Source of the DNA: a virus | Lineage: Duplodnaviria > Caudoviricetes | IMG/VR virus record: IMGVR_UViG_3300013137_002980 | Location: 1-50,635 of that record | Direction: 5' to 3' (one strand) | Length of the DNA: 50,635 nt | Shown here: in pieces, positions 40,273-50,635 of the stretch | Layout: every line of letters begins with the position of its first letter | How positions within the stretch are numbered: the stretch's first letter is position 1 | Position numbers and translations under genes: made by a program | The notes under the pieces: model-generated | Databases searched by the model: none | Seen by the model: the letters and a program-made list of their open reading frames with translations, nothing else | What the model was told of the DNA's origin: nothing

Positions 40273-40518
40273 TTAGATAACGGCTTCCTTACTATTTTGA
40301 GTAGAACGAACATACACCCAATTAATATCAGGACGCAGTTGCTCCGCTCGAACAATTCCTTTCGTAAACTTTTCAATTGGAAGACAGCGCTCTTCTGGAA
40401 TTTTGTCGAAGTTCCACTTACTTAAAGCCCAAGGCGTTATATCCAGATTTCGAGCCAGAGCAGATTTACTGCCTGCAATTTTGATTGCTTTTTCAAAAGC
40501 GTCTTTTGGAGTTGACAT
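40273..40518 (-). CDS. cro: Cro-like (YdaS family) repressor
   Basis: AIKIAGSKSALARNLDITPWALSKW...IP..RC..IE..T.G....EQLRPDI; start at 40518. Confidence 0.9.
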   Translation of the reverse strand: MSTPKDAFEKAIKIAGSKSALARNLDITPWALSKWNFDKIPEERCLPIEKFTKGIVRAEQLRPDINWVYVRSTQNSKEAVI

Positions 40519-40534
40519 AATGCTACCAACAAAA

Positions 40535-40616
40535 CTACTTAAAGTAGAAGATAATATACTACCAAAAATAGAATTGGTGCAACCTAAAATACGGGGTAAT
40601 ATTCTACCTAGCGTAG
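40535..40616. promoter_or_regulatory. Right operator region, CTAC-N5-GTAG sites
   Basis: CTACTTAAAGTAG 40535-40547, CTACCAAAAATAG 40559-40571, CTACCTAGCGTAG 40604-40616. Confidence 0.8.
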
Positions 40617-40636
40617 AAAATGAGAAGGTCCGTAAG

Positions 40637-41299
40637 GTGCAAACAGCCAAATATCAAGAATTTGCTTCGCGGCTTAATAGCCTCATGCAAAAAGAAGGCT
40701 CACCAATAAAAAACGTGAACCAATTAAAAGATGCCATTCAGGTTACTTATGAAATGGCTCGTCGCTACACGCTTGGTATTGCAAAACCTCGTGAAGAGAA
40801 AATGCAAATACTTGCTGAAAGATTTAATGTAGATATTAGTTATCTGGACCACGGTACAGGTATAGAACCAAACGTCACTGCCCCTTTCCCTATCGCTGGT
40901 CGATTGATACCTGTTATTTCCTGGGTACAGGCTGGATCCTGGACCACAGTTGACTCCGTTCCAGCCGGTACTCAATTTGAAGAATGGCTGCCACCTAACC
41001 CGAAATGTGGAAAGAATGGATATGGCTTAGAGGTCGTTGGTGAATCAATGCTTCCAGACTTCCGCCCTGGTGACAAAATTTATGTGAATCCAGATTTTCA
41101 ACCAGACGATCTTAAGACTGGTGATCTGGTGATTGTGTCTTGCGAAGACGATGCCGAAGCGACGTTTAAAAAATTAATTTTAGAAAGTGGCCATATTTAT
41201 TTACAGCCACTAAACCCAAACTGGCCAGAACAGACTATTCCTTTAATAGATGGATGTAAGTTGGTTGGTAAAGTGGTTGGGTTGTATCGGGATGTTTAA
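40637..41299 (+). CDS. cI: CI repressor (HTH plus S24 peptidase)
   Basis: IPVISWVQAG cleavage region, VVGESMLP catalytic Ser, ATFKKL catalytic Lys; probable GTG start at 40637. Confidence 0.92.
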   Translation: MQTAKYQEFASRLNSLMQKEGSPIKNVNQLKDAIQVTYEMARRYTLGIAKPREEKMQILAERFNVDISYLDHGTGIEPNVTAPFPIAGRLIPVISWVQAGSWTTVDSVPAGTQFEEWLPPNPKCGKNGYGLEVVGESMLPDFRPGDKIYVNPDFQPDDLKTGDLVIVSCEDDAEATFKKLILESGHIYLQPLNPNWPEQTIPLIDGCKLVGKVVGLYRDV

Positions 41300-41326
41300 T
41301 TTTCTAAAATATTATTGGTTTTAAAA

Positions 41327-42508
41327 ATGCCTAATGAAGAATTAAATTTAACTAAGCTTATTGATACCTTAGAAGATGAAAAAACAGGTGCACATGCGCG
41401 CAAGGGCTTTGCGTATCAAGACTGGTGGGCAGCTCATAAGTCATTCGAATTACTTAGTAACAACAGCAGTAAAGATTTCGCTATTGGCGTTGAAATCAAA
41501 GAAGATGTAATTATTATCGACTCACTAGCCAATCCTTCTCAGTTTGAATTTTATCAAATTAAGAAAAAGGAACCTAACAATTGGTCTATTTCGGGTTTAT
41601 TAAAAGCTGAAAAAAAAGTTTCTACTCAAGAAAAATCTACTATTTCAAAACTTTATTCTAGATATAGAGATTTCAAAACCGACTCAACACACTTATATTT
41701 TGTATCAAATGCTCAATTGCAAATAGAAGTTGTAGAAAACAGCACTAAAAGAAAACATTTGTTGCATAACTCTAATTTTGCTACAGATTTAGATGTGGCT
41801 AATCTTACAAAAATTGAGGACAAGATTCGATCAGAATTGAAATTAGACCAAGACGAGATTGTTAATTTCGATCGCTTAAACTTCCAGAGGTCTGATATTA
41901 GTGCTTTATCCCCTGATATGTCTGTGATAGGTGCTGTTACTGGCTTGAATGAAGACAACAAACTTCCATTCAAATTGAATAATATCTCTTCAACTTGTAG
42001 ATTATTAGCTTCAAAATTCCAAAAATTAGGCATGAATACTGATTTTGCAAAAAATTTAGCACAGTTGCAAAAGAGGTGCTTAACAAAAATAGAGCTATTG
42101 GAATTTTTAAAAATAATAAATGAAAAAATTAAATCACCCGAAGATTATTTAAAAGAAGGAATAACTCAATTAAGATCCGAAAACTATCCCTTTCCAAAAT
42201 TGGAATTGCTTATAGATGAATCCAGACAAATATTAGTTGATATAACAGATAGAACAAAATTGGATGTGCAAAATCTATTTCATCAGGCCCATCAACTTTA
42301 TAAAACCCGCAATAGTTCATATTACAACCTAAACTCACTTACTGAAATGGTAAATAATTTTACTTCTGACCTAATGTCTTATAGTGATGAACCTACACAA
42401 AATATAAACTATATTAAATGTATCACTTTGCTTTTTTTTATATCCAAAGGTGAGATATATAATGAAAGATATTTCAACATACCAGTTACTCAGACTGATT
42501 CGAAATAA
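41327..42508 (+). CDS. lmuA: Lamassu LmuA-like effector with Cap4-type (DUF4297) dsDNA nuclease domain
   Basis: G..ARKGFAYQ, E..EDV, FYQIK restriction-like motifs; adjacent to SMC-like ATPase. Confidence 0.8.
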   Translation: MPNEELNLTKLIDTLEDEKTGAHARKGFAYQDWWAAHKSFELLSNNSSKDFAIGVEIKEDVIIIDSLANPSQFEFYQIKKKEPNNWSISGLLKAEKKVSTQEKSTISKLYSRYRDFKTDSTHLYFVSNAQLQIEVVENSTKRKHLLHNSNFATDLDVANLTKIEDKIRSELKLDQDEIVNFDRLNFQRSDISALSPDMSVIGAVTGLNEDNKLPFKLNNISSTCRLLASKFQKLGMNTDFAKNLAQLQKRCLTKIELLEFLKIINEKIKSPEDYLKEGITQLRSENYPFPKLELLIDESRQILVDITDRTKLDVQNLFHQAHQLYKTRNSSYYNLNSLTEMVNNFTSDLMSYSDEPTQNINYIKCITLLFFISKGEIYNERYFNIPVTQTDSK

Positions 42509-42629
42509 ACGTAAAGGCTTATGTAATGAAAAAGAAAGTCACTTTTTTAGAACTCAACTTGCTATCAAAGAAAGAGCAGAAAGCACTTCAGGTGGATCTA
42601 AACCATCAAAAAATAATTTTACACGGTGA
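42462..42629 (+). CDS. Cryptic 55-aa ORF overlapping lmuA and lmuB; candidate small third subunit
   Basis: AAGGTGAG RBS 7 nt before ATG 42462; open to TGA 42629. Confidence 0.4.
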   Translation: MKDISTYQLLRLIRNKRKGLCNEKESHFFRTQLAIKERAESTSGGSKPSKNNFTR

Positions 42630-44223
42630 AAATGATACAGGAAAATCTGTAATAATCCGACATATATTTTGGTGCATGGGTTTAAATCCTGTAAATATAT
42701 TTTCAGATATATGGGACCATAATATTACTGGCATGCTGAGAATACTTTATGACGACAAAGAATATTGTTTCTATAGAAATAAGGATGATAGATATTTATT
42801 TCATAATGAAACCCTAATTTTTAGTTCTAATAAGAATAGTGAGTGGAATGGTTTGTTGGGTGTTTTTTTTAATTACCCATTAAAGCTGCGTCTCAAATCC
42901 AATCATATAGAGAATTATGCTGGGCTAGAAGGTTTGCTAGTTCCTTATTTTATAGAGCAGGATACAGGTTGGTCGCTAAATTGGAGTGGGCCTTTTATTG
43001 GTTTAGCTCGTTATAAAGATTTTTATAAAGAAATATTATCAAACTTTACTGGATTTAACTCTATAGAGTCTATTGCTATTAAACAAGATATTGATTTATT
43101 TAAATCTGATCTAACAAAATTAAAAACACAACTTAAACTTTATGAAGATTCTTTTCATAAAATAAAAATAGAAACAAGCCATGCTCTACCAAGAACCGAT
43201 AAAAACCAATTCAGAAGAGAAATTAAAAAATCAAGTAATGAACTGAAGTCTTTACTTATAAAACAAAAAAATCTTAAAAATAGCTTATCTGAGTTAATTC
43301 AAAAAAAATTTAAATTAAAATCTATTTTAAGATCAAGTATAAGATCTTACAAAGAGATTGCTCTTGATATTGATTATTTAGATGAGAATCTTGAAGTTGA
43401 GTGTCCTACTTGTGGAACCTTGCACAAAAAAACATTAGAAGCATCGGCATCTTTAGAATTTGATTATACAATTTTAGACAACAATATAAAAAATTTAAAA
43501 AATGAAATACTAGAAATAGACAAAAAAATTGCTCCACTAAACTCCTCTTTAGTTGCTATCGACAAAGAAATAGATAATTTTAATAAAACTTTACAATCAT
43601 CAAAAAATAATATTATCTTTCAAGATATTATTGATGTTGAAGCAAATAAAAAAATTTCAAAATCATTTGAAAGAAATATAAAATCTGTGGCCGTGGATAT
43701 TAAAAAAATTGAAGAAAAAATCTCATTAGCTGAGAAAAGTATTGAAAGTTTAGAATCTAAGGATGTTAAGAAGGAAATAAAGAAAATTTTTGAAAATAAA
43801 TTAAAATATAACTTTAATCAACTAAACATTCCGTTTAATGGGAAAATAAATCAAATTCAATCTAGGCCCAATATCGGTGGAGGCAGTTCAAATCCACGAG
43901 CAATTTTAGCTCTTCACATGACATATCTTGAACTTAGTTTAATTAAAACTAATCTACCACTATTCCCTTTTGTTATAGATACACCACAGCAAAATGGACA
44001 AGATATGAACAATCTTTCTAATACATTTAATCATTTAGAGAATATTGATTTCACGCAATTAATAATTGGCTCAGAAATAATTCCAAGCCAAGCTAATCTA
44101 AAAAATTATAAAGTTTTAGAATTTAAAAATAAAAATGCGGTACTAAATTTAAAAGATTATACAAAGGTATCGAAATTATTTAACAATTTTGATACTATTA
44201 TGAATAATCTATTAGAGGTTTAG
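42526..44223 (+). CDS. lmuB: Lamassu LmuB-like SMC/Rad50-type ATPase (short coiled coil)
   Basis: Walker A GENDTGKS, coiled coils with central CPTCG zinc hook, GGGSS signature, PFVIDTPQQ Walker B. Confidence 0.85.
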   Translation: MKKKVTFLELNLLSKKEQKALQVDLNHQKIILHGENDTGKSVIIRHIFWCMGLNPVNIFSDIWDHNITGMLRILYDDKEYCFYRNKDDRYLFHNETLIFSSNKNSEWNGLLGVFFNYPLKLRLKSNHIENYAGLEGLLVPYFIEQDTGWSLNWSGPFIGLARYKDFYKEILSNFTGFNSIESIAIKQDIDLFKSDLTKLKTQLKLYEDSFHKIKIETSHALPRTDKNQFRREIKKSSNELKSLLIKQKNLKNSLSELIQKKFKLKSILRSSIRSYKEIALDIDYLDENLEVECPTCGTLHKKTLEASASLEFDYTILDNNIKNLKNEILEIDKKIAPLNSSLVAIDKEIDNFNKTLQSSKNNIIFQDIIDVEANKKISKSFERNIKSVAVDIKKIEEKISLAEKSIESLESKDVKKEIKKIFENKLKYNFNQLNIPFNGKINQIQSRPNIGGGSSNPRAILALHMTYLELSLIKTNLPLFPFVIDTPQQNGQDMNNLSNTFNHLENIDFTQLIIGSEIIPSQANLKNYKVLEFKNKNAVLNLKDYTKVSKLFNNFDTIMNNLLEV

Positions 44224-44269
44224 CTCTAGATATTTATTTTTCTATTAATATAACTAACTTTCATCCTAT

Positions 44270-44291
44270 ACCCACCTAATGGTGGGTTTTT
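44270..44291 (+). terminator. Terminator after Lamassu genes
   Basis: ACCCACC-TAAT-GGTGGGT plus T-run. Confidence 0.8.
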
Positions 44292-44339
44292 CTATAATTT
44301 TATTTATAATCTATGCTGAAATTACAACAAGACAAAACT

Positions 44340-44682
44340 ATGAAAAAACAGCCATAACCACCCTACTCCTTGTTTTGATCATCACTGGCTGCCAAAAGCG
44401 GCCAGCTGCTCTACCTGAAGAAGAACGTGCAAAGATAACAGAGCAGTTTGAAGACTCGGATGAAAAAATTAACGGCTATTTTGATTTATTGGAAAATCCA
44501 GATACTTCACAAAAAGTACGCAAACAGATCCTTTGCAAAGACTGGCCTGATATCTATTACAAGCAGTACGTCCCTGCTTTAAAGCAACTTTCACCAGAAT
44601 ATACCGATGAAGAATTAAGTCAGGCTCTCGACAGAGCTGTGGACTACTACAAGAAAAATATGTAATCAGCTGCAATCAGTAA
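44340..44682 (+). pseudogene. Lipoprotein gene apparently frameshifted in A-runs at both ends
   Basis: ATG-A6-CAGCC is out of frame with the lipobox LIITGC; one extra A gives MKKTAITTLLLVLIITGC; a second +1 near 44651-44658 gives ...YVISCNQ stop. Confidence 0.55.
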
Positions 44683-44769
44683 AGTAAAGCTCGTGTCATA
44701 TCTAGTGACTACTATCTAATCAAGGTCAATCGCAATCCTCACCTGTTATAACGAAGTAGCGCAAAACAG

Positions 44770-44800
44770 ACCCACCAATGCCTATCGGTGGGTTCTTTTT
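44770..44800 (+). terminator. Terminator
   Basis: ACCCACC...GGTGGGT plus T-run. Confidence 0.7.
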
Positions 44801-44892
44801 GTGTAATAACTCTGTAACAGTGGATTTAAACGAAGTCTTTTACCATTTATTATATTTACTCTAATGATTTAGAATACAAAAAGGAAAACAAA

Positions 44893-45246
44893 ATGAAATA
44901 CGTGTTAGGTGCAACTCTTGTAGCTCTAGCAATCACTGGCTGTAATTCGACTCCAAATAAAGAAGTAACGCGCGAAAACGTGATACGCAATGCTCCTAAA
45001 AACACACAAATTATCAGTTTTGTAGGCCCTAATGATTTAAAACTTTTCCTAAAATCATCTGACTTATTTGAAACTGCACAAATGATTGATGGATCGGGTA
45101 AGGTTTATCATCTTAAACGCGCTGTTTCTGGCAGTGGAGTTCGCTTAGCAAATGTTGATGGTGTTTCTATCCACTTCAAAGGCGGTGAAGGTATTGTCGA
45201 GTTTGAGAAAGACAAGCCGATCAGTATTACTGAAGTAAAAAAATAA
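44893..45246 (+). CDS. Lipoprotein, MliC/PliC-like lysozyme inhibitor candidate
   Basis: Lipobox AITGC; AVSGSGVR and IHFKGGEG resemble the MliC SxSGxRY and WxKG motifs. Confidence 0.6.
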   Translation: MKYVLGATLVALAITGCNSTPNKEVTRENVIRNAPKNTQIISFVGPNDLKLFLKSSDLFETAQMIDGSGKVYHLKRAVSGSGVRLANVDGVSIHFKGGEGIVEFEKDKPISITEVKK

Positions 45247-45262
45247 AGTATCAACTTAAGAT

Positions 45263-45291
45263 CAACCCACCCTAGCGGTGGGTTTTCTTTT
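45263..45291 (+). terminator. Terminator, copy 1 of 29-bp repeat
   Basis: CAACCCACCCTAGCGGTGGGTTTTCTTTT. Confidence 0.85.
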
Positions 45292-45378
45292 TTAAAAATC
45301 CATATTTTCCCTGATAGTATGGACTTAAGACCTTGTGCCAACATTATTCTTAAATAACCATAAATACTGGAGAAAAGA

Positions 45379-45885
45379 ATGGCTTTAGATAGAGATTTGC
45401 AATTAACACTACTAACTAAATTAAGTGATGTCTACCCTTATAATTATGATTTTAATCAAGACTTTGAATACAACTCGGAAGAACGAGAAAAAGCACTGAA
45501 AAATCTGTATTACTTACAATCACATGGACTAGTTAGTGAAAAAAGTGTCCATAAATCAAATTCACTTGGAAGTCAGGCTCCAATTATATTTGGTTCATCA
45601 GCGATTACTCACAAAGGTATGGATTTTTTAGCTAATGATGGTGGACTCTCGGCTATTTTGGGTGTTGTTACTGTCAAATTTGAGGCAGATACTTTAAAAG
45701 CAATTTTAGAGAATCGTATTAATCAGTCGGACTTATCGCCTGAGAATAAGCAATCAATGATTGATTCGCTTCGAGAGCTGCCTGCCGAGTCCATAAAACA
45801 CCTGACCATGAAATTACTGGATGAGGGCTTGGAGAATCTGCCAAATGCGATCGTATTAATTGGAACGTATCTTGGTTTATCCTAG
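45379..45885 (+). CDS. Hypothetical prophage protein with winged-helix-like N-terminus
   Basis: NLYYLQSHGLV...ITHKGMDFL pattern; GGAG RBS. Confidence 0.75.
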   Translation: MALDRDLQLTLLTKLSDVYPYNYDFNQDFEYNSEEREKALKNLYYLQSHGLVSEKSVHKSNSLGSQAPIIFGSSAITHKGMDFLANDGGLSAILGVVTVKFEADTLKAILENRINQSDLSPENKQSMIDSLRELPAESIKHLTMKLLDEGLENLPNAIVLIGTYLGLS

Positions 45886-46010
45886 AGAATTCTAAAAAAA
45901 TATTACCAGCATCAATGCATACACAATTATGCTTTGTTTTTAAATCAATATATATTCCCTTTCTTTTAGGGTTCACTACTACAGAGTTAAACATTTTTAA
46001 TTAATCCATC

Positions 46011-46039
46011 CAACCCACCCCAGCGGTGGGTTTTCTTTT
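46011..46039 (+). terminator. Terminator, copy 2 of 29-bp repeat
   Basis: CAACCCACCCCAGCGGTGGGTTTTCTTTT. Confidence 0.85.
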
Positions 46040-46057
46040 GCCTACTATAAATCAAAA

Positions 46058-46117
46058 CAACTAAAAGTAGAATTATTTTCTACTAAGTATTGACATTATT
46101 TCTACTTAAAGTAGTAT
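46058..46117 (+). promoter_or_regulatory. Left operator and pL-like promoter
   Basis: Three sites 22 bp apart (46058, 46080, 46102), the last identical to 40535-40547; TTGACA 46090-46095, TAGTAT 46112-46117. Confidence 0.8.
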
Positions 46118-46135
46118 TTATTTCACCAGACAACA

Positions 46136-46173
46136 AAAAAGCCCAGCTACTTTGGAAGGGAACTGGGCTTTTG
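46136..46173 (+). promoter_or_regulatory. Leader hairpin of early-left transcript (terminator/antitermination element)
   Basis: AAAAGCCCAG...CTGGGCTTTT inverted repeat between promoter and first gene. Confidence 0.55.
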
Positions 46174-46190
46174 CTAAACGCGAGATAAGT

Positions 46191-46622
46191 ATGAACAGAA
46201 AATTCACTCCTTTCAATACCCTGGCCATCACAATCGTTACAGCTTCTGTAACTGTTGGCGGTTTGGCCCTGGCATACAAGCCACAACAGGCGGCCCACGC
46301 ACCTGTTTATCAGCCTAAGGTTGCGCCTTCTGAGTACGGCATCAGCACCTTGGTCATGACTTCTGAAACCGAAGGTCGTGCAGTCATCAATCTGGATGGC
46401 TTTAGCGTTCACGTTCCTTTCACTGTTGACGCCTTCCAGGACAGCTACGGCGTTCCAGGCTCGGAATTTACTGCGGTTGAAGTTCAGCAGCTGGGTGAAA
46501 TCAAAGTTTTTGATGCCAATGGCAATCCTTACAACGATTTCACCGATCACGTGGACCACTACAACATCAACCTGCTGATCAAAGGCTATATCGAAAAACA
46601 CCGTTTAGTGGAGGCTGCGTGA
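46191..46622 (+). CDS. Hypothetical early protein with N-terminal membrane anchor
   Basis: Hydrophobic segment LAITIVTASVTVGGLALAY; first gene after pL. Confidence 0.7.
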   Translation: MNRKFTPFNTLAITIVTASVTVGGLALAYKPQQAAHAPVYQPKVAPSEYGISTLVMTSETEGRAVINLDGFSVHVPFTVDAFQDSYGVPGSEFTAVEVQQLGEIKVFDANGNPYNDFTDHVDHYNINLLIKGYIEKHRLVEAA

Positions 46623-46921
46623 TGACGACTGACACCAAACAATTTTCTAAGTACTTGGGCACTGATGCCAACGGCAATATGCGTATGCGCCTTGGCCCTC
46701 ATGTCTATGTACGCATCGGCCACCGCTTCTACATCGAACGCGATGATGGCCTTGAGCTGGTCACGCTTGAAACACACGTTGCCCGCCCGTGGATCATGAG
46801 CAATTTTGAACGTGAAGCTGCTTATCAGCGTCGTAAGACTTTGGCTCAGGCATTACAGGCATCACACATCCCATCCTACGAGCGCAAGGCATATAAGCGT
46901 CGTATGGGTTGGGCCAGATAA
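46619..46921 (+). CDS. Hypothetical early protein
   Basis: Coupled ORF with GGAGG RBS. Confidence 0.7.
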   Translation: MMTTDTKQFSKYLGTDANGNMRMRLGPHVYVRIGHRFYIERDDGLELVTLETHVARPWIMSNFEREAAYQRRKTLAQALQASHIPSYERKAYKRRMGWAR

Positions 46922-46933
46922 GGAGCATCTGTC

Positions 46934-48055
46934 ATGGCTTTACCAATTATTACTGCAGATCAGGTTTTAAATGTGAGCGCCATCATCACTTACATCTACG
47001 CCGACCCTGGTCTGGGCAAAACCTCACTTGGCTTTACTGCAGACAAAGCAATCTCGTTTGACTTCGACCGTGGTGCTCATCGTACTGGTGAGCTGCGTCG
47101 CGGTGCTGTGGTACAGGTCCAGCAATGGGCAGATGTGACTAACCTCACCCCGCAGGACCTGGCACCTTACAACACCGTGGTGATTGATACCGTGGGCGCG
47201 ATGCTGGAAAGCATCAAAACCCACCTGCTGTTGACGGCCAACAACCGCCAGAAAGATGGTGCTTTAAAACTGAAAGCCCAGGGCTTGGCTAACCAGACCT
47301 TTAAGAACTACATCAACATGCTGATCAGCTTGGGTAAAGATGTCGTGTTCATTGCCCATGCTTCGGAAGATCAAAACGGCGACCAGATTATCTATCGTCC
47401 AGATCTGGGCGGTAAAAACCGAAATGAGCTGTACCGCATTGCAGACATCATGGGCTATTTGACCACTGTCACTACCGGTGAAGGCAAGAATGCCCGGGTA
47501 ATTAGCTTTCGACCGTCGCCAACTCACCATGCCAAAAATTCAGGCGCCTTAGGTGGTGATACTGGAGAAGTGTGGGTGCCAGACCTGAAAGATCATCCGC
47601 AGTTTTTAGCGGATCTGATTCAACAGGCCAAAGACCATATCAACACGCTTACCCCTGCCCAGCTGGCCGCGGCAAAAGCCAATGAAGAACTTGAAAACTG
47701 GAAGCAAAGCTGTGCTGAAGCTCAGTATGCAAGTGACTTAAACCAGCTGACTGAAGCGCTTGATGACACGCATCTGAATTACAAGGCTATGCGCGCCGAA
47801 ATGGTCCAGCGCGCAAAAGAAATGGGATGCACGTTTGATAAGCAGCGCAACGCCTGGATTGATCCACCGGAATTTAACGGACTGAATGATCAGCAGCTGG
47901 CAGATCTGCAGGGCTTTATTGATGAACGCGGTCTGGACACTAAAACCGTTTGTGAATACCTGGGCTTGGATGCTTTAGCTGAAATCGAAGCTCAGAAACT
48001 ACCAGCAGTAAAAAAAGACATTGAAAAATTAGCGAAAGAAATGGTGAACGCATGA
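46934..48055 (+). CDS. Sak4-like (AAA_24) recombination ATPase
   Basis: YADPGLGKTS Walker A, FDFDRG, VVIDT, FIAH, HHAKN. Confidence 0.8.
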   Translation: MALPIITADQVLNVSAIITYIYADPGLGKTSLGFTADKAISFDFDRGAHRTGELRRGAVVQVQQWADVTNLTPQDLAPYNTVVIDTVGAMLESIKTHLLLTANNRQKDGALKLKAQGLANQTFKNYINMLISLGKDVVFIAHASEDQNGDQIIYRPDLGGKNRNELYRIADIMGYLTTVTTGEGKNARVISFRPSPTHHAKNSGALGGDTGEVWVPDLKDHPQFLADLIQQAKDHINTLTPAQLAAAKANEELENWKQSCAEAQYASDLNQLTEALDDTHLNYKAMRAEMVQRAKEMGCTFDKQRNAWIDPPEFNGLNDQQLADLQGFIDERGLDTKTVCEYLGLDALAEIEAQKLPAVKKDIEKLAKEMVNA

Positions 48056-48214
48056 ATATTTTAAATAGCAAAGAAGCTTTTGACGCAATGATGGCTGCAT
48101 ATATCAAGTGCGCAGAATCAAATTCCAGAATGGTGAACAGCTACTTGGTATTGGCAGAAAAGAAATGTGCTGGGTTTTCGCAAAAAATTTTGAAAAATTA
48201 GGGAAGGTGAAGTG
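48052..48214 (+). pseudogene. Probable deletion remnant joining a gene start to an out-of-frame gene end
   Basis: MNILNSKEAFDAMMA... stops after 49 aa, while another frame reads ...RIKFQNGEQLLGIGRKEMCWVFAKNFEKLGKVK stop coupled to the next gene. Confidence 0.4.
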
Positions 48215-48499
48215 ATGGATATTCATATCAACAGACCTCGATTTAACGCCAAAAGAATAGTTCGATTTAAATGCCCTGACTGCAAGAAAAATAGTCGAGC
48301 TATTGAGTTTTTTCAACACTATCGTGGATGGGATTCAACTTGCATAAATTGCGGCAGACAGTGGTGTGATGGCGAATGGGTGTATTTGGATTTTTATCGT
48401 GGCGTGCGGAAAAAGAATATCAATGCAGCTAAGCAGCTATGGCGAAAACTAAAAGATATTGGCAACGAAATAACATTTGAAGAATTTGAGGTGGCGTGA
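48212..48499 (+). CDS. Small zinc-ribbon-like protein
   Basis: CPDC...CINC. Confidence 0.7.
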   Translation: MMDIHINRPRFNAKRIVRFKCPDCKKNSRAIEFFQHYRGWDSTCINCGRQWCDGEWVYLDFYRGVRKKNINAAKQLWRKLKDIGNEITFEEFEVA

Positions 48500-48735
48500 T
48501 GGTATTAGCAAAATTCACAGCAAGCACACAAAAGCTTAAAAAGGCTGGCTTATATCAAATCGGAGCAAGAAAGAACCTAGTAATTAAGGTTAATAGATAT
48601 GCAAATTGCACAGTGAAGCTTACAGAAAACGGCCCTGTAATCATCCCTGAAAATCTTATCTACTTTTTCAACGAAAAAGAAATTCAAGCATTAAAGGATG
48701 GGAAGACACTAATTAAAAATGGGAAGGTGACGTGA
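48496..48735 (+). CDS. Hypothetical protein
   Basis: Coupled ORF, GAGGT RBS. Confidence 0.6.
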   Translation: MMVLAKFTASTQKLKKAGLYQIGARKNLVIKVNRYANCTVKLTENGPVIIPENLIYFFNEKEIQALKDGKTLIKNGKVT

Positions 48736-49034
48736 TGGATTTACAGAAAGAAATGCAAATTTGCAGCAAAGAGTTTGAAGAAAGATGGGGTGTTTTCTGT
48801 GAGGCACATGGTAGCAGGCATAACAAAAGCGTCGCTAAGTATTTTTTCTTTTCTTCATGGCAGCAAGCGAAAGCCTGGGTGGTTCCGGAAGGATTTGTTC
48901 TTGTTTGGAGAACAGATCTTGAATGTGCAATTGACGCTGTGAACTGGCCATCTATTGACGATTGTGATCACTACACTAAACAACCAGGCGGCTTGGAGGA
49001 TGTGCTTAAAGCACAGGAGCCAACCAATGACTGA
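48732..49034 (+). CDS. Hypothetical protein
   Basis: WQQAKA..VPEGFVLV motif common in phage early genes. Confidence 0.65.
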   Translation: MMDLQKEMQICSKEFEERWGVFCEAHGSRHNKSVAKYFFFSSWQQAKAWVVPEGFVLVWRTDLECAIDAVNWPSIDDCDHYTKQPGGLEDVLKAQEPTND

Positions 49035-49341
49035 AATTCAACTAACAAACATCCAGTTTGCAGAGCTTCAGCTCGATAACCTTGTCGCAAAAGACAAGCC
49101 TTACATCGAATCGTGGTCCGCCGGTGATGTTGGCTCATTCAATGCGATTTTAAATGCGGTGGATTACGACAATGAGTTCACGTATCACATGCGCGGCTGG
49201 TCAAGACAGCGAGTTAAAAGCGGCACCGGTGCAATGATTGAAGTGAATGAAATGAATGCGGACCAGTTGTATCACTTGTTCACCTGCTTTTTGAGCAAGT
49301 TGCCAAGTGGGGTTGTAGAGAGCTTAAAGGAGGTTTCTTGA
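49027..49341 (+). CDS. Hypothetical protein (MTEIQLTN...)
   Basis: AGGAG RBS before ATG 49027. Confidence 0.7.
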   Translation: MTEIQLTNIQFAELQLDNLVAKDKPYIESWSAGDVGSFNAILNAVDYDNEFTYHMRGWSRQRVKSGTGAMIEVNEMNADQLYHLFTCFLSKLPSGVVESLKEVS

Positions 49342-49619
49342 TGGCGCGTTACACCATCACTGTTGAAGCTGAAAGACCGCCGCAAATCATGCTTGGCCAA
49401 GAGATCGGCGGCGCAACAGTGAAAGAGTTAAAAGAGGTTGATATTGAGCTGGTTTCAGCAGCCCACCTGGCCCGGAAGTACAATCTGTCTGTGACCACGA
49501 TTCGAGAAAAGTTAGCCCCGATCAATCAAGGTACACAAGGCAAGGCGCTATACAATCCACGTTTAGCGCATGACCTGCTCACAACAAAAGTGAAAAAAGG
49601 CAGACCGAGAGCTAATTAG
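49338..49619 (+). CDS. Putative excisionase/HTH DNA-binding protein
   Basis: LVSAAHLARKYNLSVTTIREKL HTH, basic KKGRPR tail; adjacent to integrase. Confidence 0.6.
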   Translation: MMARYTITVEAERPPQIMLGQEIGGATVKELKEVDIELVSAAHLARKYNLSVTTIREKLAPINQGTQGKALYNPRLAHDLLTTKVKKGRPRAN

Positions 49620-50635
49620 CTCTCACTGTCGTTAAACATCTCTACTAAATCCTGGGCATCTGGATTGTAATAGGTATTAATTAAAATCCCGATTGTCTTA
49701 TGCCCTGTGATTTTCGCCAAAACTTCAACCGGCAACTTACGAACCTTCACCATTCTTGTAATTGCCTCATGTCGGGAATCATGGAAGTTAATATGCGGCA
49801 GACCTGCTCTTTTCTTAGCTCTTACCCATGTTGCGCAGCATATATCTTTATCAATCGGTAGCAGCTCATCATTATCCGGTGGCAATAAGGACAGCAGGCG
49901 CTTGGCTTCTTTTGATAGCGGAACGTTCCTGGATTCACCATTTTTTGTCATCGGCAGATGAACAAACCCATCCTTTAAGTCAGCCCTGCGCATCGCCAAA
50001 ATTTCGCCCTGGCGCATGGCGGTTTCAAGTGCAAACAGAAATGCCCATGCTACATAGTGTTTAGACTTTTCCGGTGTGGTCATACCGTCCCAGTCCAGTG
50101 CTTTGAGTAGCTCAGCTTGCTGCTCAGGTGTGATGCGCTGGTTTCGTGATTTTTCTTTACTCGGCATTGGTACTGCATGCCAGACATTCGACTCTAGCAA
50201 AAACAGTTCTTTCATTGCATACGTAAAGATGGCCGAGTAAATAGCATGCTCATTTCTCAGTGTTGCCACTTTCACTTCCTTTTTCCGTTTATTGCGCCAC
50301 TCCACAATGTCGCTGGGCTTAAAGTCGTAAATGGATTTATCGGCAATGTTTGGCGCAATTCTCTCAAGGTTTTTTATCTTGAGCATGATTGTCCGGGCAG
50401 ATCGCATGTGTCGGCCATGTTCGTGGTAATACTTATCGCAGAGCTGGCGAAAAGGATACGCTGGTTTTATCCCATGTTCGATATTCGCTTTCCCTGTTTT
50501 TAATTCTAGTAATTTGAGCGAAGCCCACTGCTCACATTCTTTTGCTGTATCCCTGGTTGCTGTGTATCTTTTATTTTCAAAAGTGACAGTGATGCGCCAG
50601 CTTGAGCCGCGCTGAATCGGTTTTGGAAGTTTCAT
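49616..50635 (-). CDS. int: Tyrosine recombinase (phage integrase)
   Basis: TAMRQGEI (R), TKNG (K), FHDSRH (HxxR), ITGH, NTYY (Y). Confidence 0.95.
   Translation of the reverse strand: MKLPKPIQRGSSWRITVTFENKRYTATRDTAKECEQWASLKLLELKTGKANIEHGIKPAYPFRQLCDKYYHEHGRHMRSARTIMLKIKNLERIAPNIADKSIYDFKPSDIVEWRNKRKKEVKVATLRNEHAIYSAIFTYAMKELFLLESNVWHAVPMPSKEKSRNQRITPEQQAELLKALDWDGMTTPEKSKHYVAWAFLFALETAMRQGEILAMRRADLKDGFVHLPMTKNGESRNVPLSKEAKRLLSLLPPDNDELLPIDKDICCATWVRAKKRAGLPHINFHDSRHEAITRMVKVRKLPVEVLAKITGHKTIGILINTYYNPDAQDLVEMFNDSES

Follow-up and report, generated by a model that had tools for sequence, protein, structure and literature searches.

A conserved small open reading frame across the lmuA-lmuB junction of a prophage Lamassu locus is probably an overlooked gene of many two-gene Lamassu systems

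We studied a two-gene Lamassu locus in the IMG/VR virus record IMGVR_UViG_3300013137_002980 (Duplodnaviria; Caudoviricetes), whose 50,635 nucleotides (nt), positions 1 to 50,635, were analysed as one stretch, called the window here, and in particular a small open reading frame (ORF) of 55 codons lying across the junction of lmuA and lmuB. Lamassu is one of the common anti-phage and anti-plasmid systems based on SMC (structural maintenance of chromosomes) proteins, and its two-gene form has been treated as lacking a middle subunit. The small ORF is probably a real, ancient and unannotated gene of many two-gene (type I) Lamassu systems that encodes an LmuC-like micro-subunit: coding conservation was read from sequence comparisons, binding to LmuA and LmuB is predicted by a structural model, and the product may act in nuclease sequestration or DNA sensing. 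The elements of the junction, in window coordinates, are as follows.

41327..42508, + strand: lmuA, Cap4-nuclease effector, 393 amino acids (aa); PADLOC LmuA 1.8e-42, Pfam Cap4_nuclease (PF14130) 2.1e-29
42447..42454, + strand: Shine-Dalgarno-like AAGGTGAG, 7 nt upstream of the small-ORF ATG and within the lmuA codons K-G-E
42462..42629, + strand: small overlapping ORF, 55 codons plus stop; basic, mostly helical predicted product; conserved, with a coding signature
42480..42515, + strand: conserved core, small-ORF residues 7-18 (Y-Q-L-L-R-L-I-R-N-K-R-K), from an alignment of 85 distinct peptides
42526..44223, + strand: lmuB, SMC/Rad50-like ATPase, 565 aa; PADLOC LmuB 1.6e-93 over residues 3-559

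The two annotated genes are typical of Lamassu: a Cap4-nuclease LmuA (the Pfam cut-off for PF14130 is 26.2 bits) followed on the same strand by an LmuB with a Walker A motif (GENDTGKS) and a CxxC zinc hook (CPTC, residues 293-296), both invariant among homologues. The lmuA ORF opens at TTG 41315 and stops at TAA 42506-42508, and its likely start is ATG 41327 because homologues begin at the corresponding Met; lmuB starts at ATG 42526 and its N-terminus is conserved among homologues. Type I systems are recognized by having no gene between lmuA and lmuB. Here a conserved coding ORF spans the junction, and therefore the architecture, judged from sequence, is two-gene by annotation only. The small ORF begins at ATG 42462 and ends with the TGA at 42627-42629. 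It reads in frame +1 relative to lmuA and -1 relative to lmuB, so that the three genes use three different frames; it shares 47 nt with lmuA and 104 nt with lmuB, and the first 34 codons of lmuB double as its own frame. Its predicted product has a net charge of +8. These coordinates, the 55 codons and the peptide are those given by a first-pass annotation of the window, with an identical translation, and reading of the sequence also confirmed the two overlaps and the Shine-Dalgarno-like sequence that it had placed upstream of the ATG.

That annotation had further remarked that the frame stays open in AT-rich DNA, a point that held in part. On the + strand of lmuAB no off-frame stretch is open for longer than the stop-to-stop frame at 42408-42629 (73 codons; the next has 47), and G+C near the junction is 27-31%; but in 10% of synonymous reshufflings of the window lmuB the frame reached equally far (p = 0.10), and for this reason the window by itself is suggestive only, significance coming from other loci. 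This p value agrees with a chance open frame produced by the LmuA and LmuB amino-acid sequences in AT-rich DNA, as does the fact that the Shine-Dalgarno-like sequence and the ATG also follow from the conserved LmuA residues K-G-E and N-E. A candidate internal sigma-70 promoter (TATAAT, 42458-42463) was rejected, since the promoter scan reports no promoter-like site at the junction; over the region it gave 18 sites against a shuffle expectation of 19.5.

Searches with LmuB alone or with a close-family alignment (A1) gave no matches in genome or metagenome contigs, and a broader alignment was needed. The broad LmuB alignment (A4) retrieved 372 relatives in species-representative genomes, and we analysed the best 80 (L030-L109), which are the relatives closest to the query and not a random sample, chosen independently of the small ORF. 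The first-pass annotation had linked its proposal to conservation in homologous two-gene loci, and the ORF was conserved in 73 of these best 80 relatives, always in frame lmuB-1, as well as in seven of ten plasmid loci (see below). The 73 species-level ORFs start with ATG (69), GTG (3) or TTG (1) and encode 41-81 aa (median 54) with a median net charge of +7. Of their starts, 22 form an ATGA overlap with the lmuA stop; 25 lie 5-11 nt before the stop, 24 lie 17-62 nt before it and 2 just downstream. The overlap with lmuB is 56-176 nt, and exactly 107 nt in 26 of the 73 loci; in the loci read through, the stop at the 107-nt end point arises from an N-[DE] codon pair just before Walker A. According to the record names, from which the phyla were taken, the carriers include Pseudomonadota, Bacteroidota, Bacillota, Acidobacteriota, Thermodesulfobacteriota, Oligoflexia and Nitrospinaceae, with one Saccharibacteria genome.

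The encoded peptides share the consensus core [FY]-K-x-L-[IV]-R-N-L-R-x-K, in which R14 is the sole invariant column of the alignment (A5), and their amino-acid conservation holds across genomes of 27% to 62% G+C. A hidden Markov model (HMM) built from 12 loci known before the survey was run blind on the 13,022 six-frame peptides of the 80 loci. It matched in 46 of the 80 at E <= 1e-3, every match lying at the junction, on the + strand and in frame lmuB-1; eight extra domain rows fell on those same peptides, and no other peptide matched. The remaining 27 carriers represent divergent sub-types (e.g., T-R-L-R-R-I-L-R-S-L-K in sphingomonads) and were assigned by ORF plus alignment, a softer criterion.

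Coding selection was examined in the 45 loci whose 12 core codons are shared with neither lmuA nor lmuB. Pairwise differences there averaged 0.53, 0.33 and 0.69 at codon positions 1, 2 and 3; position 2 was invariant in three core codons and position 3 carried 1.1-1.96 bits. The synonymous share of differing codons was 0.34 in the small-ORF frame versus 0.088 and 0.038 in the other two. In all 73 loci the frame ran open into lmuB for longer than the median synonymous shuffle, and stop avoidance in lmuB reached p < 0.05 in 27 of them (median p 0.078); these loci are related and not independent, yet their LmuB proteins are 21-28% identical to that of the window, so that synonymous sites should be saturated. 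Stops are avoided for at least 18 lmuB codons past the lmuB start, and for about 35 in most loci. The comparisons support a conserved, selected coding gene rather than a chance frame. The chance reading keeps next to no probability: it is refuted by the occurrence of the ORF in 73 of 80 loci, by the coding signature seen where the core occupies free spacer and by the blind HMM result.

The only close relative with DNA for comparison is an IMG/VR contig (L001) with 78% nucleotide identity across lmuAB. Its small ORF has 57 codons and is preceded by AAAGGAGAA at the same spacing as the Shine-Dalgarno-like sequence of the window. Identity between the two loci peaks at 92-95% exactly over 42455-42575, the highest of the operon. 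Neither the lmuA tail (42464-42505), with its 13 identical codons, nor lmuB codons 2-11 show a synonymous difference, against a background of 264 synonymous differences in 684 identical-residue codons, and the sole LmuA change in the tail (V to T, a two-base change) leaves the small-ORF peptide unaltered. Eight consecutive T residues at 42432-42439, within lmuA and just upstream of the small ORF, were considered as a slippage site and discarded, being missing from this relative.

More distant loci carry the small ORF as well. Within the Acinetobacter-type group, all six complete and distinct loci of viral or metagenome origin have it (L001, L002, L004, L005, L007 and L016). In L002 (Acinetobacter sp. 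ANC 3781), L004/L005 and L007, with LmuA proteins 36-41% identical to that of the window, a frame of 59-70 codons is open across the junction and the frame order is as in the window (lmuA, +1, +2). The peptide S-T-Y-N-L-L-K-L-I-R-N falls there in a 41-nt spacer because LmuA ends earlier, and sequence differences in this spacer are almost only synonymous in the small-ORF frame. In L016, whose LmuB is 28% identical, the motif reads S-Y-N-I-L-K-L-V-R-N and the LmuA frame over the same bases is unrelated. Across seven distinct loci the length from the motif to the lmuB start varies only by multiples of three (-6 nt in L016, -3 nt in L022). Another IMG/VR locus (L018:2400-2520; LmuB about 30% identical) encodes M-E-K-N-Y-K-L-L-V, a TGA and then S-L-R-M-K-V-Y-E-K-I, the TGA standing at the only invariant residue (Arg) of the family: a natural knock-out, a sequencing error or read-through.

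Among the ten plasmid loci, those of Polaromonas JS666, Haematobacter, Roseomonas (with a weaker motif), Bacillus sp. RA, Agrobacterium, Aliarcobacter and P. putida S12 have the small ORF, three of these seven with an ATGA overlap between its start and the lmuA stop; none of the ten records annotates it. Two of these plasmid loci have a split or frameshifted look, lmuB being annotated as two coding sequences in Haematobacter (L024:1495-3228) and lmuA in Bacillus sp. RA (L026:362-1452); in neither is the small ORF disrupted.

All 87 small ORFs extracted overlap the lmuB start and run one base behind the lmuB frame, that is, lmuB is always small ORF +1. Together with the order lmuA, +1, +2 of the Acinetobacter-type loci, this regularity would be expected of a programmed +1 frameshift that joins the motif to the LmuB N-terminus or makes it an alternative LmuA C-terminus. 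We regard such a shift as very improbable. In each of the 73 loci the conserved region opens with a start codon of its own (ATG in 69); a stop stands two codons before the ATG in L016, and the lmuB frame of L001 is closed right up to its ATG. No shared slippery sequence was seen by eye in the junctions of the viral, metagenome and plasmid loci compared, and the avoidance of stops extends well beyond any plausible shift site. The LmuA profile ends and the LmuB profile begins without the motif, and the seed HMM finds no in-frame fused form in the loci devoid of the small ORF.

The small protein was modelled alone and in a complex. AlphaFold2, with the 73-sequence alignment, predicted one helix over residues 6-43 at a mean predicted local distance difference test (pLDDT) value of 68, most confident over the conserved first 20 residues. 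A complex with LmuA and LmuB, which the first-pass annotation had envisaged, was also predicted: LmuB, LmuA residues 14-393 and the small protein gave a median score of 0.62 versus 0.01 for the best of three controls, and the runs agreed in at least 43% of contacts. The predicted interface comprises small-protein residues 3-14 and 16-17, which would contact LmuB residues 277-310, spanning the hook cysteines 293-296, and LmuA residues 309-310 and 380-387, the latter in the conserved ERYFNIPV end. The model thus places the small protein between the LmuB zinc hook and the LmuA C-terminus.

Such contacts leave some room for a free-standing micro-protein with another role: it might inhibit free LmuA or act as its antitoxin, or be a small factor that binds nucleic acids. 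Predicted contact with the C-terminal end of LmuA suits an inhibitor too, and the basic charge and single long predicted helix suit either. This is nevertheless quite improbable: most low-error contacts in the model are to the LmuB hook region, replacement of LmuB abolishes the score (0.00), and no similarity to a known antitoxin or defence family was found in the PADLOC and Pfam searches.

A further alternative retains the translation of the ORF and denies a function to its product. As a cis-acting regulatory ORF, translated over the lmuB ribosome-binding site and start, it would set the amount of LmuB made per LmuA; in a variant, a possible nascent-peptide pause at the basic R-N-L-R-K-K stretch would make it a conserved arrest peptide. 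The overlap with the lmuB start, always one base behind, is universal though the overlapped tail is not conserved in sequence, the lmuB Shine-Dalgarno lies within the R-K-[KG] codons of the motif, and a start coupled to the lmuA stop would hand lmuA ribosomes over to the small ORF. We consider this explanation unlikely, since pure coupling has no need of amino-acid conservation with free third positions about 10 codons upstream of the lmuB Shine-Dalgarno, nor does occlusion alone require that stops be avoided so far past the lmuB start. There is also no significant RNA structure for translation to open, none being found at the junction beyond that of shuffled sequences (z = -0.35 in the window and +0.68 in L001), and the complex model puts the conserved residues in a specific interface. 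The first-pass annotation had offered a cryptic third gene or a translational-coupling peptide. The third gene is favoured by the codon-periodic substitutions, the stop avoidance, the own ATG and the complex model, and a coupling peptide with a purely cis-acting role is the less likely of the two.

As a subunit gene, the small ORF would use its own start codon, located at the lmuA stop or shortly ahead of it, with initiation probably coupled to lmuA termination, and translation would run across the lmuB ribosome-binding site and start and 56-176 nt into lmuB. The conserved N-terminal amphipathic helix would dock between the hook-proximal LmuB coiled coil and the LmuA C-terminal end, where it may help to keep the Cap4 nuclease monomeric and inactive on the LmuB dimer; the basic tail may add a DNA contact. 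A broader proposal is that most type I Lamassu systems have three components, an ancestral micro-protein dual-coded with lmuB codons 1 to 18-58 being the functional counterpart of LmuC that clamps the nuclease at the zinc hook. We advance it tentatively, at slightly less than even chances. If it is true, the published type I reconstitutions and cryo-electron microscopy structures, made with separately recoded lmuA and lmuB, lack a native subunit, and the obligatory read-through of the lmuB start may also tie the synthesis of all three proteins together.

Several observations weigh against a subunit of this kind. The mark for the complex score, attained by 58 of 80 solved complexes and, among 110 mismatched pairs, by 2, is calibrated only roughly for this complex, with its custom alignments and three chains, and the pLDDT of the small protein in the complex is at least 47 (47-50), so that its fold is uncertain. 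Deeper in lmuB, the window and L001 use different codons for 6 of 29 identical residues, and all six lmuB-synonymous changes alter the small protein; therefore only its N-terminal part appears conserved in sequence, and its C-terminal half does not. The small ORF is missing from 7 of the 80 species-level loci (L055, L056, L088, L099, L101, L103 and L109), from the Vibrio europaeus, B. mycoides and Klebsiella plasmid loci and from a Listeria grayi locus, and these loci appear intact. Finally, according to the accessible text of 10.1101/2025.06.23.660979, a 2:1 complex formed and E. coli was protected from T1 when B. cellulasensis NIO-1130 LmuA and LmuB were produced from two separate genes, each codon-optimised. 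Codon optimisation and gene separation would not leave such an ORF intact, so at least one type I system, as described there, works without the peptide when over-expressed, whether or not its native operon has the ORF.

The ORF-less loci were traced on a FastTree phylogeny of LmuB with 96 tips and midpoint rooting, the root not being established. They form one nested clade of eight with support 1.0, made up of enterobacteria, Vibrio, Colwellia and Psychromonas, plus three single tips. Because these loci nest in this way, the tree suggests that the small ORF was ancestral in the loci compared and was later lost.

The predicted position recalls LmuC (DdmB, MC1-MC8) of type II Lamassu and ABC-3C systems. 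In the accessible text of 10.1101/2025.03.14.643221, LmuC is described as a small globular protein of one domain that joins the C-terminal domain of LmuA to the coiled coils of LmuB near the hook, and the parts available of 10.1101/2025.06.23.660979 place it in that same region. The small ORF likewise lies between lmuA and lmuB on the same strand, and its product is likewise small and basic, with a predicted position between the C-terminal region of LmuA and the hook-proximal coiled coil. In contrast to LmuC as described there, the product is far smaller (41-81 aa), with one predicted helix instead of a globular domain, and its gene overlaps lmuB by 56-176 nt in all 87 cases. None of the 73 members matched the PADLOC LmuC models at E <= 1 (PADLOC-DB of 2023), and the two are likened here by position and predicted site, not by descent.

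In the available portions of the literature, type I is the clade that lost LmuC (PMC12663957) and its complex consists of LmuB2 and LmuA only (10.1101/2025.06.23.660979). The window resembles the type I system of B. cellulasensis NIO-1130 in having a Cap4-nuclease LmuA followed directly by an LmuB of about 565 aa, with no annotated lmuC; the difference is that most members studied here carry the extra conserved coding frame. A resemblance to short overlapping or coupled operon genes (ATGA-coupled small subunits, leader peptides) is given by the ATGA overlap in 22 of 73 loci and by the span over the ribosome-binding site of the next gene, but the downstream overlap of the small ORF is long and universal and its peptide is conserved across phyla. 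Searches of the open full-text literature on Lamassu, supplements and subscription papers aside, found no description of a small or overlapping ORF, and an earlier description is possible. If the gene is real, it changes the parts list for detection (PADLOC and DefenseFinder-type rules), reconstitution and structural work, and opens a new way to study how the nuclease stays silent in the absence of LmuC.

Searches with the single 55-aa peptide were too weak for this family: tblastn gave no match in plasmids at E <= 10, and phmmer against 1.84 billion representatives found only the peptide itself. The family profile, run against a collection of 5.8 billion proteins, found 14 predicted proteins, including that of the window; none has a Pfam domain, and the only recorded names are 'hypothetical protein'. 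The small ORF is a clear example of a phylum-spanning dual-coding region overlooked by gene callers, with 14 proteins predicted among 5.8 billion but 73 carriers in the best 80 of 372 related loci. Pfam and PADLOC families gave no consistent match to the 73 members, only scattered single ones. A profile search of the PDB matched only archaeal ribosomal protein eL18, weakly and in its basic N-terminal helix (E = 4.7e-4), and this match was set aside as compositional.

Contigs from bovine gut, fertilizer and wastewater metagenomes and from one unspecified run carry the junction (window 42380-42700), mostly at no less than 99% identity. They are fragmentary, show no difference within 42462-42629 where it is covered and, being near-identical, are uninformative on conservation. 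Sixteen further sequencing runs (lake water, gut, wastewater, bioreactor and unlabelled) match part of the sampled words of the junction. The protein database form of this LmuB (P0006) has 515 aa and comes from a 2835-nt contig, which points to a gene call about 50 codons late or to a truncated contig.

Two further features flank the operon.

40403..41299, + strand: CI/LexA-like prophage repressor (helix-turn-helix and S24 peptidase); Peptidase_S24 3.5e-22, PHROG transcriptional repressor 2.1e-44
44270..44287, + strand: terminator-like hairpin and T run, closing the lmuA / small ORF / lmuB unit

The lmuAB genes are cargo of a prophage (window 40403-50635) and lie directly downstream of the CI-like repressor gene on the same strand. 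Diverging CII-like, O-like and DnaC-like genes are found upstream, and a gene resembling those for recombination directionality factors, a Sak4-like gene and an integrase gene (49616-50635) downstream. The G+C content is 23-33% over lmuAB and 41% in the whole window.

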